From: a virus
Lineage: Duplodnaviria > Heunggongvirae > Uroviricota > Caudoviricetes
IMG/VR virus record: IMGVR_UViG_2609459819_000002
Coordinates: 1-20,937 of that record
DNA: 20,937 nt
Reading direction: 5' to 3' (one strand)
Part shown: positions 1-8,790 of the stretch, one piece after another
How positions within the stretch are numbered: the first letter of the stretch is position 1
Layout: each line of letters begins with the position of its first letter
Notes under the pieces: model-generated
Told to the model about the DNA's origin: nothing
The model's input: only the letters and a program-made list of their open reading frames with translations
Database searches by the model: none
Translations under genes and position numbers: made by a program

Positions 1-549
1 TCAGCTAGCTGGAAACTTTTTATACAGAGTTGAGAGCCCTACTCCATACGTTTTTGATACGCTTTGTCGTGATTCACCGGTTGCCATCCGCTCCCCCATT
101 TCCCGCCATTGCTCATCCGTGAACTTAGGCCTGCGACCACCAACTCGCCCTTTTGCCCTGGCTACGGCCAGCCCTGCTAAGGTACGTTCGCTATTAAGAT
201 CAGATTCATATTGTGCTGCGGAAAGGATGTTACGAAAGTTATAGCGGCCGCTGGCTGTTTTGAGATCCACGCCATCGGTAATACTGCGGAAGTTGATACC
301 CTTTTCCTGTAACTGCTGGAACATCAACAGCGCATGCAGAACGTTGCGGCCTATCCTGTCCAGCTTCCAGACCACCAGTTCATCCCCCGGCTGCATAGTG
401 GCGATCAGCCGTTTTAGAACCGGCCGATTCGATTTCCTCCCGCTGGCATGCTCTTCAAAAATTTTCTCACAACCCGCTGACTTGAGCGCCGTTAGTTGCA
501 ATTCAGTGTCCTGGTGGTTTGTTGATACTCGGGCATAACCGTAAATCAT
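1..549 (-). CDS. Serine recombinase, DNA invertase (Hin/Gin/Pin family)
   Basis: 183 aa from ATG at 547-549 (MIYGYARVSTNHQ...), with the catalytic Ser in the N-terminal RVST motif and a C-terminal HTH (GLSTLYKKFPAS). AGGAGA RBS 6 nt upstream. Sits next to tfa and a tail-fibre fragment, as in Mu G, P1 C and e14 P inversion systems. Confidence 0.85.
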   Translation of the reverse strand: MIYGYARVSTNHQDTELQLTALKSAGCEKIFEEHASGRKSNRPVLKRLIATMQPGDELVVWKLDRIGRNVLHALLMFQQLQEKGINFRSITDGVDLKTASGRYNFRNILSAAQYESDLNSERTLAGLAVARAKGRVGGRRPKFTDEQWREMGERMATGESRQSVSKTYGVGLSTLYKKFPAS

Positions 550-554
550 GGGAT

Positions 555-580
555 TTCTCCTGTTATGAAAACAGGAGAAA
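555..580. repeat. Imperfect 26-bp palindrome (TTCTCCTGTT-ATGAAA-ACAGGAGAAA) just upstream of the invertase start; candidate crossover site or RBS hairpin
   Basis: Inverted arms tctcctgtt / aacaggaga read directly from the sequence. Loose resemblance to the ACAGGAA half-site of gix-type sites, from memory only. Confidence 0.25.
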
Positions 581-717
581 CGGCGAAGCATCACCAGATT
601 TTTGATGGTTATAAAAAAGGTTCGTTTCGAACAGGAGGAGTAGCGGAGGGCTATGTTGCTTAGTTTGAAAATAGCTGGTCTTGCTGATGCGCATTGATGT
701 AGCAAGACCAGTATGGT

Positions 718-1086
718 TTAAAGTTCCGGGATGACAGGCCAGTTAACATGCTCAGGGTCGGTTGTTACATCAACAGCCTTAACCTGATTCTTATATAAAA
801 GCCACGCCGAAAGTTTAGCTCTGTTGGCATCGCTGATTTCACCCAGCATCAGCTCTGTGCGCCAGTCGAGCATAATTGCATCAGCGGCGGACAGTAATCG
901 CTGTCGCTCATTTTCAGCAGCCTGGATGAGTTGTTCATGAGTCGGTGGGGGATTAATAATTGCCATAGCCTCACTTCTGGTGATTGGCACAAGCCCTTCT
1001 TTGATAAAAGCATCCTGTGTGCCATACGCATCGTAGGCATATACGACGTTATTTTCATCTTTGTAATACTTCATCATTGTTATCAT
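718..1086 (-). CDS. tfa: Tail fibre assembly protein (Tfa family)
   Basis: 122 aa (MITMMKYYKDENNVVYAYD...), with a C-terminal VNWPVIPEL-type ending typical of Tfa chaperones. GGTGGA RBS upstream; start overlaps the stop of the tail-fibre fragment; lies between fibre fragment and invertase. Confidence 0.7.
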   Translation of the reverse strand: MITMMKYYKDENNVVYAYDAYGTQDAFIKEGLVPITRSEAMAIINPPPTHEQLIQAAENERQRLLSAADAIMLDWRTELMLGEISDANRAKLSAWLLYKNQVKAVDVTTDPEHVNWPVIPEL

Positions 1087-1751
1087 TTTTTATCCACCTC
1101 TACCCAGGTAACATCTGACACTGTTCCTGAAAACTGCTGCACAATATAGGTCGCACCGGCAGGAACCATGAATGCGATAGTTGCTCTTTGCCCTGCAAGA
1201 TTTGTTGTCTGAGAGCCGCGAAAATTAGCCGAATTACCATTCACATTAACGTTGGCGCTCAGAAATGAACTACCGTCAGACAGCACCGCATTGACGCTTA
1301 CAAATATGGCGAAAGACTGGCTGTTGGTGTATACGACACCGAGATTTCTAGATTTCATTCCGCATTGACCAAACAACCCTTTCATATCTGAATAGTTTTG
1401 TGATGCAGCAAGTGATGATGCAGCAACACCAGATTCTGTTGATGTTCTGGAATCAGATACGCGGATAATTCCCTTGTTTGTAGTGGTTGCATCATTAGTC
1501 TTGCCTTGCAGAGCTACAATATCCGCATAATTCATCGCTGCCGCTTTTGCTGTTGCAGCAAGCGTTTCAGATTCGGATACCCTTGATGATGTAAGTTGAA
1601 CAATTCCTTTCTGTGTCGTAGTTGAATCCTGAGTTTTGTTTTGCAAAGATTTTATGTCCGTATAGTTTTGCGCGACAGCATTAGCTGTGGCTGCAATATC
1701 CTCTGCACCCGATATCCCCCCACCATCCCATCGGGACGTCGGCGTTGTCAT
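1083..1751 (-). pseudogene. Side tail fibre protein, C-terminal (variable) fragment
   Basis: 222-aa frame with three tandem fibre-like repeats (QNYTDIKSLQNKTQDSTTTQKGIVQLTSS / MNYADIVALQGKTNDATTTNKGIIRVSDS / QNYSDMKG). The frame opens abruptly with no N-terminal anchor domain, right after a baseplate gene fragment. Confidence 0.55.
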
Positions 1752-1862
1752 CAGGCTCCGCCCGCCGCCAAGTGAACAGGGAAATCACCACGGCGCGGGT
1801 CAGCGGATCCAGCGGTGCGCTGGCGCAGGTGCGTTTACCGTTCACCGTCAGCCACAGTTCCA

Positions 1863-4825: not shown

Positions 4826-4856
4826 AAAATAAAAAAGCCACCTATTAGAAGGTGGC
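4826..4856 (-). terminator. Rho-independent terminator after the tail-operon moron
   Basis: On the minus strand: GCCACC-ttctaata-GGTGGC stem-loop followed by TTTTTTATTTT. Lies between the moron stop (4877) and the RBS of the next tail gene. Confidence 0.5.
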
Positions 4857-4876
4857 CTTGTAATGAATTTTATTAA

Positions 4877-5407
4877 TTAGCGAGTCAGAAACAACGAATC
4901 TTTATACTTTTGCTGTTGTTCATTTAAATACTTAGCTGTTTCATCGCTGGCAAATGGAAATATTACCGTATTTTTAGGCATGGTAATTTCTTTTTTGTCC
5001 AGCGTCAGAGTAAACATAGGAACATACTGAGCAGAGTAACGCACCGCAGAAACGAGCTCTAGTTTAGACTCTTCAATAACACTTAAATTATCCAGGCTAA
5101 CTTTCTCTTCATCTTTTTTCTTTGACGCATTTAAAGTTTTTATTACTTTATTTAATTTCTCCTGAAAATCCTCCTTAAAGTTTTCAGGATTGCCGTCGAC
5201 AACAAGAATCTGTTCACCCTGATTATCTGGAAAAATAATCTTTGCACTTATCAATTTATTTTCTTTATAAACATCACCAAGTTTTATGGCTCCTCCAGAT
5301 AACTGAATAATATGTTCATCTTTAAAGGAGATGTTGCCAGAGATTATGAGAGATGAAAAAACAGCCGCTGCTCCAAGAATTACACTTGCTGTGATATAGC
5401 CTTTCAT
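4877..5407 (-). CDS. Hypothetical signal-anchored or secreted protein (AT-rich moron in the tail operon)
   Basis: 176 aa; hydrophobic N-terminus (MKGYITASVILGAAAVFSSLIISG) followed by a K/E-rich soluble part. Markedly AT-rich compared with the flanking tail genes; has its own candidate promoter and a terminator. Confidence 0.6.
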   Translation of the reverse strand: MKGYITASVILGAAAVFSSLIISGNISFKDEHIIQLSGGAIKLGDVYKENKLISAKIIFPDNQGEQILVVDGNPENFKEDFQEKLNKVIKTLNASKKKDEEKVSLDNLSVIEESKLELVSAVRYSAQYVPMFTLTLDKKEITMPKNTVIFPFASDETAKYLNEQQQKYKDSLFLTR

Positions 5408-5442
5408 TTTTCGCCTATTAACATTTTTCTAAATGTGCATTA

Positions 5443-5470
5443 ATTCTATCACTCTATTTATGACTTACAA
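5443..5470 (-). promoter_or_regulatory. Candidate sigma70 promoter for the tail-operon moron
   Basis: Minus strand TTGTAA (-35), 16-nt spacer, TAGAAT (-10), about 35 nt upstream of the moron ATG. By eye only. Confidence 0.25.
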
Positions 5471-5498
5471 CCAGCAATACCTGTGAGGGGAATCCTGG

Positions 5499-7331
5499 CT
5501 ACCAAAATCGGGTATAGCCAACATCGTGATTTATATCAATGCCACTGGAGCGTGTTTCCGTAACCCGCATACCTGGTGGCATATTTATAAATGATACCTT
5601 GATCTCACCATCAACTTTTGGCGCAGAAGCTTTGTTAATCATGAAGGGATTCGGGCCTGTGGCATCGGAGGCGTTGTTTGACTGAGCCAGATCTACCGCC
5701 GGATAAGGTGTGTATCCCCGCGCCGGTATTCCCGTCCCATAAGCATCATAAGCACTCGCGCCCCACTGCGCAGAGTTAATGGCATCGACCGTGTCACCGG
5801 AACTGTCGGTAAACCACTCAATAATTGGCTTCAGCTTATCCCACATATCCTGAAACCACTTAACAACCGGTCCCCAGTTATTGATCACCATCCCCAGCGG
5901 CGACCAGGCAAAAACCTTCTTCAGAAGTTCCCAGCCAGCCTCAAAATAAGGACCAATGGTTTCCCAGAGCTTCTTAAAATAAGGTCCGACAACATCCCAG
6001 TTAGTGATAATTAATCCCGCAGCCAGAGCAATCGCCGTCGCAATCATGCCAATCGGCGTCATCGACATAATCCTGCTGACAATACTGATGGCACTGCCCA
6101 CGCCCATCAATCCCAGTTTCAGAATCGCAAGACCGGCAGCAAGCCCGACGACGCCGCGAATAACCCGGGGATTTTCATCCGCAAACTTCGTGAATTTCTC
6201 CCCCAACTCCCCCAGCCACTGCGTGATATTTTTGGCGTCACCAGAAAATGCGCCGCCAATAGCTGCAAGACCGTTAGTTGCGGTCCCCGTCATTGCCTCC
6301 CACAGGTTGGACAGCGTACCAAGCTGAGCCTGAACACGTTTATTCAGGCTGGCCTGTTTATTCATCTTCTGCTGGATCTGATCGTAGCCATCCTTTCCTT
6401 TATCGATTAGTGCATTGACCACCTGAAGGGTTTCGGCATCATCACCAAATATTGCCTTAAGTACGCCTGTTCGCTTAACGTCGGTCAGTTTTCGCAGCTT
6501 TGCCAGTTGCCTGAACATGTTATCAAGACCGCCAAAACTCCCTTTGCCGTCAGTAAAATCGAGCTGTACCCCGAGTTTCTGGCGGGCCATGATTTTATTG
6601 ACGTCCCTGATTTTCTTAACGCTTAATCCGGACTGGATAACTTTTCGCAGGGCGTTACCTGCCGACTCCCCGTTCATCCCCATCTGATCCATCATGACGC
6701 TGATGGGGGCAAGGCTCTGTGCAGCCTGAAGACCGTCCTTGTTCACCATCTTCAGAACAGAGCTGGTTTTAGTGAAGAAGGACAACATGTTGGTATCGTC
6801 AACGCCCAGATAAAACGCCTTCTGGATAGTGTCGAACAGCCCCATCATGTCTTCTGACGCCGTTCCGGTAGCATCCTGCATCTTTGCGGCAAACTCGGCA
6901 GCCGCTTCCGGTGTTTTTTTCAGTTGTACCGCAAGATAAGCTGTCGCTTTACCCACACCGCCAAGAATGTTTTCTGCCGGGATCCCCTGACGCACCAGCA
7001 TCTGCATCATGTTCTGGAAATCAGCCGTTGTACCGGGTAGCTGATTACCCAGGCCAATAGCCAGTTTATTGATGTCCTGAAAGCTCTTTCCAACCTCGCC
7101 GTTCGCATCCATCATGGCGACTTTCAGCCCGGTGGCGGCGTTTTCCTGATCGGCATAAGATTTCAGGGAAAGCGTCAGACCCGCTGCCAGTCCGCCACCA
7201 AGCGCTAGCCCACCCTGTGACGCTTCTTCCGCCTGGCGTTTAAATCCCCGGATTTTCTTTTGCATTTTCGACAGCGCGGGAGAAAGCCTGTCGACACCGG
7301 TGATCAACGCCTTAAGCTCAAATTCCGCCAT
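5499..7331 (-). CDS. Tail tape measure protein
   Basis: 610 aa; Gly/Ala-rich and hydrophobic central segments and a Trp-rich C-terminal part (WDVVGPYFKKLWETIGPYFEAGWELLKKVFAWSPLG). Positioned after chaperone-like ORFs and before baseplate genes. Confidence 0.8.
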   Translation of the reverse strand: MAEFELKALITGVDRLSPALSKMQKKIRGFKRQAEEASQGGLALGGGLAAGLTLSLKSYADQENAATGLKVAMMDANGEVGKSFQDINKLAIGLGNQLPGTTADFQNMMQMLVRQGIPAENILGGVGKATAYLAVQLKKTPEAAAEFAAKMQDATGTASEDMMGLFDTIQKAFYLGVDDTNMLSFFTKTSSVLKMVNKDGLQAAQSLAPISVMMDQMGMNGESAGNALRKVIQSGLSVKKIRDVNKIMARQKLGVQLDFTDGKGSFGGLDNMFRQLAKLRKLTDVKRTGVLKAIFGDDAETLQVVNALIDKGKDGYDQIQQKMNKQASLNKRVQAQLGTLSNLWEAMTGTATNGLAAIGGAFSGDAKNITQWLGELGEKFTKFADENPRVIRGVVGLAAGLAILKLGLMGVGSAISIVSRIMSMTPIGMIATAIALAAGLIITNWDVVGPYFKKLWETIGPYFEAGWELLKKVFAWSPLGMVINNWGPVVKWFQDMWDKLKPIIEWFTDSSGDTVDAINSAQWGASAYDAYGTGIPARGYTPYPAVDLAQSNNASDATGPNPFMINKASAPKVDGEIKVSFINMPPGMRVTETRSSGIDINHDVGYTRFW

Positions 7332-7506
7332 GTGTGCGTTTCTCCTGCTCTATCCTGTTTGCCTGACTGACCAGCAAGGGAATTTCACTGATCGGCATAT
7401 TCAGCAATTCGAAGGGATTAATGCGCCAGTAGCTGGCGCAGTCAAAGAAGCGATCAGTGAGGTATTCAGCCGTCAGGCCTGGAGGAAAAAACCAGCCACA
7501 AGCCAC
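7318..7506 (-). CDS. Tail assembly chaperone, -1 frameshift extension ORF (T-like)
   Basis: 62-aa ORF in the -1 frame relative to the ORF at 7473..7679, overlapping it by 34 nt and the tape measure start by 14 nt. Confidence 0.4.
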   Translation of the reverse strand: MACGWFFPPGLTAEYLTDRFFDCASYWRINPFELLNMPISEIPLLVSQANRIEQEKRTHGGI

Positions 7507-7679
7507 GCCGCTGCATTCAGGTCTGCCGGAGACATCTGGTCGACAGAGCTTTGCGGCACTTTCGCCAGCCGCACAATGTATTTCGACACCACATGCGCCA
7601 GAAGTCTGACGGACTCATCCTGATTCATCTGGTAGGGATAGCTCCAGCGACCGCTGGTATCGTTCATCTCTGTCACCAT
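7473..7679 (-). CDS. Tail assembly chaperone (G-like), possibly N-terminally truncated
   Basis: 68-aa ORF immediately upstream of the tape measure gene, containing an in-frame slippery heptamer near its 3' end. Confidence 0.4.
7485..7491 (-). other. Candidate -1 programmed frameshift slippery heptamer (T_TTT_TTC)
   Basis: On the minus strand GGT TTT TTC is in the zero frame of the 7473..7679 ORF, 12 nt before its stop; the -1 frame continues into 7318..7506. Confidence 0.35.
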
Positions 7680-8241
7680 CCTCCGGACGGTTCATGTTTG
7701 AGGCGTTAACCTCAATCCCGAACGCTTCCGTCAGCATGGGTGTGCGTTTACACATCAGTCTTGCCGGACGAAAGACTTCCCATGCCTGTTTCTCCGTCGT
7801 GGCACCGGAATACACTTCCGCGCCGAACTCGTTATCACAGGCAAAACAATACAGGGCGACACCGGCAGAGATTGCCGATTTGCCGTTCTTACGGGGGATT
7901 TCGGTATACACCTCACGGAAGCGGCGCAGCCGGGAGCCTTTATTGACCCAGCCAAACGCGCAGCAGATCACAAAGAGCTGCCACGGCTCCAGCGTGATGG
8001 GCATCCTCTTGAATGCCCACTCACCCTTGGTGTGCGGCAACAGCTGAATAAATTTGGCGGCCCGTTCAGCCAGATCCTTGTCGAAGCGGTAACGAAACGA
8101 CTTACTTTTTTCCGCCATCAGGTCATCAAGATGGCGCTGGCAGGCCTGAATCACAAACTGGCAGGCCACAATCTTTCCGCGCACGACATCCCGGGCATAC
8201 TGATTGGCAGCATTTACGTTGGGGTAAGATTTCCGGCTCAT
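7615..8241 (-). pseudogene. Terminase large subunit, N-terminal fragment (truncated by deletion)
   Basis: Only 208 codons; Walker A-like PRKNGKS present. The frame ends in a non-terminase-looking tail and is followed within 1 kb by the tape measure gene; portal, protease, capsid, sheath and tube genes are absent. Confidence 0.7.
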
Positions 8242-8254
8242 GATTCGATGATTT

Positions 8255-8740
8255 TCAGATTGTCAGAAACGGGTTAGTGGCTTTCTTCTTCCCCGCCAGG
8301 CCAATCAGACGCTGGCGGCTGCTGGGGTCGAGTCCGAGCATTGCCCCCGTGCTGCTCATCTCGGACTCCTGTTCTTTTTTGGCGGTCAGCTCCGGATTTT
8401 TGACCATGCCGCCCATTGCACCGGTGATGGTGTTACCCTGTCTGGCAATATTTTTCACGGCACGTCGCCAGAACTCATAGGCCACACACCACCGCTCAAG
8501 TACCGCCAGGTCAGTCACGCACAGCAGGCCCTGACCGCAGAGTTCTTTGGTTGTCAGTTGCCACATGATCGTGGCGAGAGGGAGATCTTCTTCAGCGAAC
8601 CACTCCGGTGGCTCAACACCTTTGATGGGTGTAAAAACAGGTTCATCTTTATTCAGGGCTCGCTTGCCGGGGTTTCCGGCCAGCGCCTTGCGCGCCGTTG
8701 GCTTGGGGCGACGCCCGGAACGCCCCGCCGTTCCAGCCAT
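8255..8740 (-). CDS. Terminase small subunit (P27 family)
   Basis: 161 aa from ATG at 8738-8740 ([18 protein letters not shown]...), AGGAG RBS upstream. The track start at 8749 is a GTG. Confidence 0.8.
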
Positions 8741-8790
8741 ATGCGGCACTCCTGGTTAAATTTCATTTTTCGCGGGTATAAAAAAACGAT

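Follow-up and report, generated by a model that had tools for sequence, protein, structure and literature searches.

A probable orphaned relic of a P2-type tail assembly chaperone frameshift cassette in a decaying SfV-like prophage

Results

Organization of the locus

The window, i.e. the whole stretch of 20,937 nucleotides analysed here (IMG/VR record IMGVR_UViG_2609459819_000002), carries a multiply deleted SfV-like prophage with HK97-type head genes and a Mu-type contractile tail, located at thrW beside proA. Its flank carries proA, tRNA-Thr(CGT) and a tyrosine integrase, and the same thrW-proA context is found for a related prophage of E. coli KFu022. The region of interest lies on the minus strand and comprises, from high to low coordinates, a truncated large-terminase (TerL) ORF of 208 residues (7615..8241), a 41-nt fragment of the tail sheath gene (7638..7678), the 3′ remnant of a tail assembly chaperone gene (7473..7640) and an apparently intact tape measure protein (TMP) gene of 610 residues (5499..7331; PF10145 at 1.3e-26; 97% identity to SfV orf14), whose ATG is preceded by an AGGAG at 7346..7342. 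The chaperone remnant corresponds to codons 35–89 plus the stop codon of an 89-residue protein of the SfV orf13 / P2 gpE type. Below position 7648 the DNA shares 98–99% identity with the Shigella phages SfV, SfII and SfI and with vB_EcoM-689R6, a phage of E. coli, the match beginning inside the chaperone gene, and the DNA above 7676 matches their large terminase. The intact phages share the gene order sheath, tube, 89-residue "tail protein/tail assembly protein" (SfV orf13) and tape measure. The chaperone gene is accordingly placed between the tube and TMP genes in the 98–99% identical intact relatives; in the window the TMP gene also follows directly, but the remnant is preceded by the truncated TerL ORF and the sheath fragment. 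Compared with SfV, the prophage is without portal, protease, capsid, connector, sheath and tube genes, and a further break has removed the baseplate genes that follow the gp45 homologue. A search of 7100..8900 found neither promoter-like nor terminator-like sites.

The minus-strand 3′ end of ORF 7473..7679 reads GCG TGG CTT GTG GCT GGT TTT TTC CTC CAG GCC TGA, with the stop codon at 7475..7473. It contains the heptamer T_TTT_TTC (7491..7485) in the X_XXY_YYZ register of this ORF (zero frame GG-T TTT TTC), a candidate −1 frameshift site which is separated from the stop codon by 9 nt or three sense codons. On the minus strand, codons start at 2 mod 3 in ORF 7473..7679 and at 0 mod 3 in the overlapping ORF 7318..7506, so that the latter lies exactly in the −1 frame. 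A tandem slip would be followed by the reading …AGFF|PPGLTAEYL… over 55 codons to the TGA at 7320..7318, and the extension overlaps the TMP ATG (7331..7329) by 14 nt. The first-pass annotation had proposed a −1 programmed frameshift at this place; its coordinates and frames for heptamer and −1 ORF proved correct on the minus-strand sequence, including the run of the −1 ORF into the TMP start and the distance of 12 nt between heptamer and stop, if the stop codon is counted in. The predicted E′-like extension (7318..7485; 55 codons and TGA) lacks a conserved start of its own and matches phrog_32181 (4.7e-40), a PHROGs family of unknown function. Pfam gave no match for the antisense ORFs 7300..7623 and 7694..8047. 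Within the overlap with the TMP gene (7318..7331), the window E′ is two residues longer than that of SfV (…RTHGGI compared with …RTHG) due to a T-to-G change, synonymous in TMP codon 2 (GCT to GCG), which removes the SfV E′ stop. This longer variant is a natural polymorphism and not a sign of decay, since it is also present in two intact IMG/VR contigs (L148 and L151).

The bare pattern, defined as an in-frame XXXYYYZ within the last 25 codons plus at least 50 codons of −1 extension, occurs in 4 of the 79 mechanical ORFs of at least 60 residues in the window (~5%). It is therefore weak evidence on its own, and it is homology and conservation that lift the site at 7491..7485 above chance. Downstream of the heptamer, no stimulatory structure was found at the canonical spacing of 5–9 nt, where only a weak 4-bp stem at +6 is present; the overall fold is not significant (z=−1.6), and no Rfam family was matched.

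Deletion anatomy

Local blastn alignments to the SfV genome, complemented by comparison base by base, revealed how the chaperone gene was truncated. Window 8807..7676 corresponds to SfV 1..1124, i.e. the small terminase gene and the first 189 codons of TerL, and window 7648..5505 corresponds to SfV 9458..11600, i.e. the chaperone gene from codon 35 onward and the TMP gene. Between them lies the sheath fragment, which matches SfV orf11 at positions 8229..8269 with 40/41 identity. Each deletion junction carries a 3-nt microhomology, TGG at 7678..7676 in one case and TAT at 7640..7638 in the other; identity with full-length E. coli TerL extends to 7674. The junction between TerL and sheath is out of frame, and the TerL remnant therefore stops at the TGA 7617..7615. 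This ORF is TerL-derived down to 7676, its last 19 codons being composed of out-of-frame junction, sheath and chaperone sequence, and its PF03354 match covers only profile positions 1–83 of 178. The sheath fragment, in contrast, is read in its native frame and is joined in frame to Tyr35 of the chaperone. According to this map, ORF 7473..7679 is a chimera whose 13-residue N-terminus consists of TerL and sheath junction sequence. Its designation as chaperone in the first-pass annotation consequently holds for 7640..7473 and fails for the first 13–14 codons, which belong to the deletion junction.

The remnant matches PF10109 (Phage_TAC_7, "Phage tail assembly chaperone proteins, E, or 41 or 14") with 27.4 bits at a cut-off of 25, and only over profile positions 39–78 of 79. 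As judged from the alignment with SfV, 689R6 and AH07, the native ATG, the ribosome-binding site and codons 1–34 are absent from the window; in the family alignment, these 34 codons hold 14 of the 26 invariant columns of the E part (residues 1–86). The retained part carries no decay mutations. A GGAGG is located 12 nt upstream of an ATG at 7667, from which a gene caller predicts a 64-residue product. The earlier view that the chaperone pair survives an adjacent deletion has to be given up, because the deletions cut into the chaperone gene itself and eliminated the tube and sheath genes as well; what persists in the window is limited to the recoding signal together with two-thirds of the cassette at its 3′ end.

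The junction-spanning allele was found in none of 5,426 E. coli complete genomes, and an exact junction search of IMG/VR gave no match. Five Logan contigs from different sequencing runs (SRR29703808, ERR9716529, SRR29027567, ERR10986884 and ERR10987060; L185–L189) contain the double-deletion allele without a single mismatch over 961 nt (window 7300..8260). Since the identical allele recurs in different runs, it is stably inherited, and the degraded prophage marks a circulating bacterial lineage. In E. coli H3 (NZ_CP028732, 2990..3020), an independent deletion joins a DUF968 gene to the chaperone gene at a breakpoint only a few bases from that of the window (7638..7650); PGAP labels this independently truncated copy as a pseudogene with missing N-terminus. 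A (C)GCTGG motif beside the junction is common to the three partners, which suggests a microhomology hotspot for illegitimate recombination at the chaperone breakpoint.

Further features of the prophage were recorded alongside. A third break lies at window position 1713, where SfV homology ends ~150 nt into a gp46-like baseplate gene. Beyond it follow an ORF with tail-fibre repeats (1083..1751), a tail-fibre assembly fragment (718..1086) which covers the C-terminal half of its profile only, and a Pin/resolvase-type invertase gene (1..705); gp46–48-type baseplate genes are missing from this region (1..1862). Between the TMP gene and the DNA-circulation (Mu N-like) gene, the window contains ~665 bp absent from SfV (4840..5504), which also occur in the other contigs with the double-deletion allele. 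They include a minus-strand ORF (4877..5407) for a 176-residue protein with a hydrophobic N-terminus, a match to phrog_5485 (E=4e-108; unknown function) and no Pfam match, likely a moron inside the tail operon. On the opposite (plus) strand, a gene for a 267-residue DUF3800 protein (11522..12325; PF12686, E=1e-10) sits in the late-promoter region, flanked by the Q antiterminator gene (12547..13329) on one side and the lysis genes on the other, and is possibly a moron or accessory gene. Another in-frame heptamer, T_TTA_AAC at 18379 on the plus strand, is located in an xis-like ORF (18059..18439); its −1 frame is that of the integrase ORF 18316..19479, open for 364 codons, and the arrangement is probably a coincidence of overlapping genes.

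Conservation of the cassette in relatives

Among species-representative genomes, all 14 of the 14 genuine relatives carry T_TTT_TTC or T_TTT_TTT at the position encoding …AGFF together with a 53-residue −1 extension. With IMG/VR added, 76 of 78 unique loci keep T_TTT_TT[C/T] at AGFF and a −1 extension of 50–55 residues, and heptamer and extension persist in relatives down to ~41–56% protein identity. Across 13 diverged relatives, GGTTTTTT followed by C or T is invariant and the flanking synonymous sites vary. At the codon level, 14 of 68 codons with an invariant degenerate amino acid are themselves invariant in 11 diverged sequences, and GGT TTT TTC CCT account for four of these. In the three most distant relatives (L102, L115 and L123; 41–56% identity over the fusion), the zero-frame stop is found 10, 11 or 13 codons after the site compared with 5 in SfV, and the slip site and an E′ length of 50–55 residues are retained despite the moved stop. 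Between SfV and a further relative (L093), the substitutions downstream of the site are 23 synonymous and 4 nonsynonymous when read in the −1 frame, as opposed to 1 and 24 in the zero frame; by this measure, purifying selection downstream of the slip site acts in the −1 frame only. The candidate E′ start at GTG 7506 is not conserved and is replaced by GTT in AH07, L094, L097 and L099.

A single continuous frame in homologous chaperone genes, which the first-pass annotation had named as a refuting condition, was seen in two small sets of homologues only. Four of them, from the protein database (P0001–P0004), are indel-ridden singletons with frame changes at differing places and were rejected as counter-evidence. 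Two close relatives in IMG/VR (L008 and L009, from UViG_2585427747_000001 and UViG_2585427730_000011) read GCTGGGTTTTTTCC at ~1755; the extra G hard-wires chaperone and E′ into one frame and yields exactly the predicted fusion (…AGFFPPGL…), and it either stems from a sequencing error in the homopolymer or marks a natural "fusion-only" mutant. Both sets are rare exceptions and do not represent the state of the family. The further claim of a conserved tail assembly chaperone frameshift cassette upstream of the tape measure gene was borne out by the PF10109 assignment, the 98–99% identity to SfV, SfII and SfI, and the retention of heptamer and extension. There is thus a strong case that the frameshift cassette is real in the SfV-like family, as far as sequence analysis can show. 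The fusion product is unannotated in all four intact-relative records inspected (SfV, vB_EcoM-689R6, AH07 and E. coli 042), the −1 ORF being listed as a separate hypothetical protein in that of vB_EcoM-689R6, and a literature search on SfV and frameshifting found nothing relevant.

A hairpin downstream of the slip site

Within the E′ coding sequence, a perfect 8-bp hairpin, UGCGCCAG-CUA-CUGGCGCA (7422..7440, minus strand), begins 44 nt 3′ of the heptamer. The stem includes four degenerate codons (TGC, GCC, TAC and CGC), all of which are invariant in the 11 diverged sequences of the enterobacterial clade against the above background of 14/68 (~21%), and the loop and the flanking synonymous sites vary in this clade. 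In L123 the hairpin is disrupted, and L102 and L115 form a weak version of it. At the corresponding position, in or beside the invariant Trp codon of E′, P2 and several P2-like groups have strong stems of a different sequence. The RNAalifold covariation term for the hairpin is ~0. A 20-bp stem occupies the corresponding position in P2-like sequences of the Burkholderia type; over 34 of these, its pairing amounts to 80.4% compared with 79.4% in shuffles, and the single A-U to G-C swap found among them is not convincing as covariation. The spacing of the hairpin is wrong for a classical stimulator. That a Trp-codon hairpin ~45–60 nt 3′ of the heptamer constitutes a real, so far undescribed functional element of E/E+E′-type cassettes is in our view doubtful; if so, it might tune frameshifting or the expression of E′ or of the tape measure gene.

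Discussion

A mechanistic scenario for the intact phages can be transferred from P2 and lambda, on which both the presumed slippage and the presumed chaperone role are modelled. In this scenario, a minority of ribosomes would slip back by one base at GGU UUU UUC. Phe-tRNA would decode both the UUU in the P site and the UUC in the A site, and each of the two tRNAs could re-pair on UUU UUU. Translation would then proceed over 53–55 codons in the −1 frame and generate a fusion protein of ~139 residues. In analogy to lambda G/GT and P2 E/E+E′, the short and the long form might act on the tape measure protein and bring in the tube subunit. In the window, two microhomology-mediated deletions have joined TerL codon 189, the 41-nt sheath fragment and chaperone codon 35. 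The resulting remnant is devoid of its native initiation site and of the conserved N-terminal third, and the tube and sheath genes that it would serve are gone. Fortuitous initiation at ATG 7679 or 7667 might at best give rise to a peptide of 64–68 residues and, rarely, to a frameshift product of 116–120 residues; some translation of the remnant from ATG 7667 is possible. We therefore consider the window site to be, very probably, a recent, unmutated but functionally orphaned relic of a P2-type frameshift cassette in a decaying prophage, the loss of function being attributable to the missing N-terminus and partner genes and not to sequence degradation.

A still working cassette would imply that the chimeric ORF 7679..7473 is translated from ATG 7679 or 7667, undergoes frameshifting and provides either chaperone function or a dominant-negative product that disturbs how superinfecting SfV-like phages assemble their tails. 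In favour of this, the sequences of heptamer, E′ frame and TMP gene are all intact, the reading frame continues from the sheath fragment into the chaperone, and ATG 7667 has both its upstream GGAGG and the support of the gene caller. However, the 34 missing N-terminal codons include more than half of the invariant E-part columns, the prophage has no tube, sheath, portal, protease or capsid genes left and has also lost part of its baseplate module, and a promoter-like site is absent nearby. The identity of the allele in several independent samples, which might be taken as a sign of maintenance, reflects recency or clonality and not selection, and PGAP treats the equivalent copy in E. coli H3 as a pseudogene. 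We thus regard a functional window cassette as highly unlikely.

For the intact relatives, one might ask whether the fusion arises by slippage of RNA polymerase on the T6 run, with a U inserted or deleted, instead of by a ribosomal −1 shift. The homopolymer of six or seven T and the lack of a nearby stimulatory RNA structure are in line with this idea, and the nucleotide sequence does not separate the two mechanisms. Efficient bacterial transcriptional slippage, however, usually needs runs of ~8–9 or more, and the run keeps the exact X_XXY_YYZ register in every relative. Given in addition that translational frameshifting is what has been described for the homologous site of P2, polymerase slippage seems a remote prospect compared with ribosomal frameshifting.

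Hardly credible, finally, is a coincidental heptamer beside an open −1 frame, with ORF 7318..7506 being an independent small gene started at GTG 7506 or non-coding: the ~5% frequency of the bare pattern, the separate annotation of the −1 ORF for vB_EcoM-689R6 (and often of a "GpE family" ORF in P2-like records) and the unknown function of the PHROGs family would fit it, but the GTG is unconserved, purifying selection is seen in the −1 frame starting at the slip site, synonymous constraint acts on the heptamer, whose position stays fixed while the zero-frame stop moves, and the homologous P2 site is annotated as a −1 frameshift site and described as such (PMC3091744).

The main value of the relic reading, combined with a ribosomal −1 shift in the intact relatives, lies in annotation. 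The records of SfV, vB_EcoM-689R6, AH07 and E. coli 042 give either the 89-residue chaperone only or a separate hypothetical −1 ORF, and the comparisons presented here provide strong evidence for a predicted P2-type E/E+E′ frameshift product in this widespread group of SfV-like prophages. The window site itself should not be counted as a working recoding event, as it resides in a 5′-truncated pseudogene of a prophage without head, sheath, tube and some baseplate genes. The anatomy of its junctions, where 3-nt microhomologies flank a 41-nt sheath fragment left behind by two deletions, offers a small and clean example of stepwise prophage decay.

Comparison with known systems

The closest counterparts of the window copy are SfV orf13 and its equivalents in SfII, SfI and E. 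coli prophages ("phage tail assembly protein"), with 98–99% nucleotide identity from codon 35 through the TMP gene and an identical heptamer and E′ frame. They differ from it in that they are full length (89 residues) and follow the sheath and tube genes, whereas the window copy is fused to a sheath fragment and a truncated TerL gene.

Lambda likewise encodes its chaperone just ahead of the tape measure gene, and an infrequent −1 shift close to the 3′ end of the chaperone gene produces a C-terminally extended form (PMC5009743). The resemblance to gpG/gpGT comprises the functional logic and the gene position. It does not extend to the protein families, as the window protein has no family match to lambda-type chaperones and only PF10109 was matched in Pfam, nor to the tail type, which is a non-contractile siphovirus tail in lambda in contrast to the sheath and tube genes of the SfV-type relatives. 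The slippery heptamer of lambda is G_GGA_AAG. The first-pass annotation had seen the conserved G/GT arrangement in the locus; by descent, the cassette appears instead to be of the P2 gpE/gpE+E′ type, and lambda provides a functional analogue only.

Phage Mu is related through the neighbouring tail genes of SfV-like phages, which are Mu-like (homologues of L, M and gp42–48), and Mu gp41 scores weakly on PF10109. However, gp41 has 144 residues and belongs to PF23746 (Gp41_Mu, 9e-35), for which the SfV-type fusion gives no match, and −2 frameshifting is reported for gp41 (PMC5009743) as opposed to the −1 frame of the extension here.

P2 shifts into the −1 frame at TTTTTTG and thereby produces proteins of 91 and 142 residues, and the site is conserved in other P2-like phages (PMC3091744). 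For this E/E+E′ frameshift at T_TTT_TTG in the FETUD tail operon, that source cites Christie et al. 2002 and Xu et al. 2004. The lack of a stimulatory structure at canonical spacing is reported for P2 as well (PMC3091744). The P2 record annotates E (91 residues), the joined E+E′ (142 residues) and the −1 site, and E′ overlaps T by 8 nt. The SfV-type cassette shares several traits with it. The zero-frame part belongs to PF10109 (E=2.5e-15 over profile positions 2–78 for the full SfV-type protein, 1.4e-12 for P2 E+E′), and the sizes of 89 and 139 residues are close to the 91 and 142 of P2. The T-run heptamer occupies the aligned …(V/A)-G-F-(L/F) position, encoded by GTC GGT TTT TTG in P2 and GCT GGT TTT TTC in SfV. 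The −1 extension of 53–57 residues has no start of its own and overlaps the TMP start by 8 nt in both P2 and SfV, and in the intact SfV-type phages the chaperone gene is flanked by the tube and tape-measure genes, which belong to a contractile tail. The same layout and heptamer were found in 6 of 6 other P2-like phages; the relatives of P2 from IMG/VR are 99–100% identical and hence uninformative. An hhalign comparison of the SfV-type fusion profile with P2 E+E′ aligned 118 columns across both frames with the slip sites in register (E=1.1e-4), at a probability of only 56%. Pairwise BLASTP between the SfV-type and P2 proteins reached E=0.017, and the SfV-type extension had no HMMER match to the P2 E′ family PF06528 (Phage_P2_GpE) even at E up to 10.

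The differences from P2 concern the last base of the heptamer, which is C here (A-site UUC, Phe) and G in P2 (UUG, Leu), an overall identity of ~25%, and the SfV-like backbone with HK97-type head and Mu-type baseplate, which is not that of Peduoviridae; the window copy is, in addition, 5′-truncated and orphaned. On the grounds of PF10109, the slip site aligned with that of P2 and the hhalign score, we assign the cassette to the P2 gpE/gpE+E′ type by apparent descent. With the tube and sheath genes deleted in the window, its copy is a remnant of a member of this type and not a functional member, and the recoding system to which it belonged is of a kind already known.
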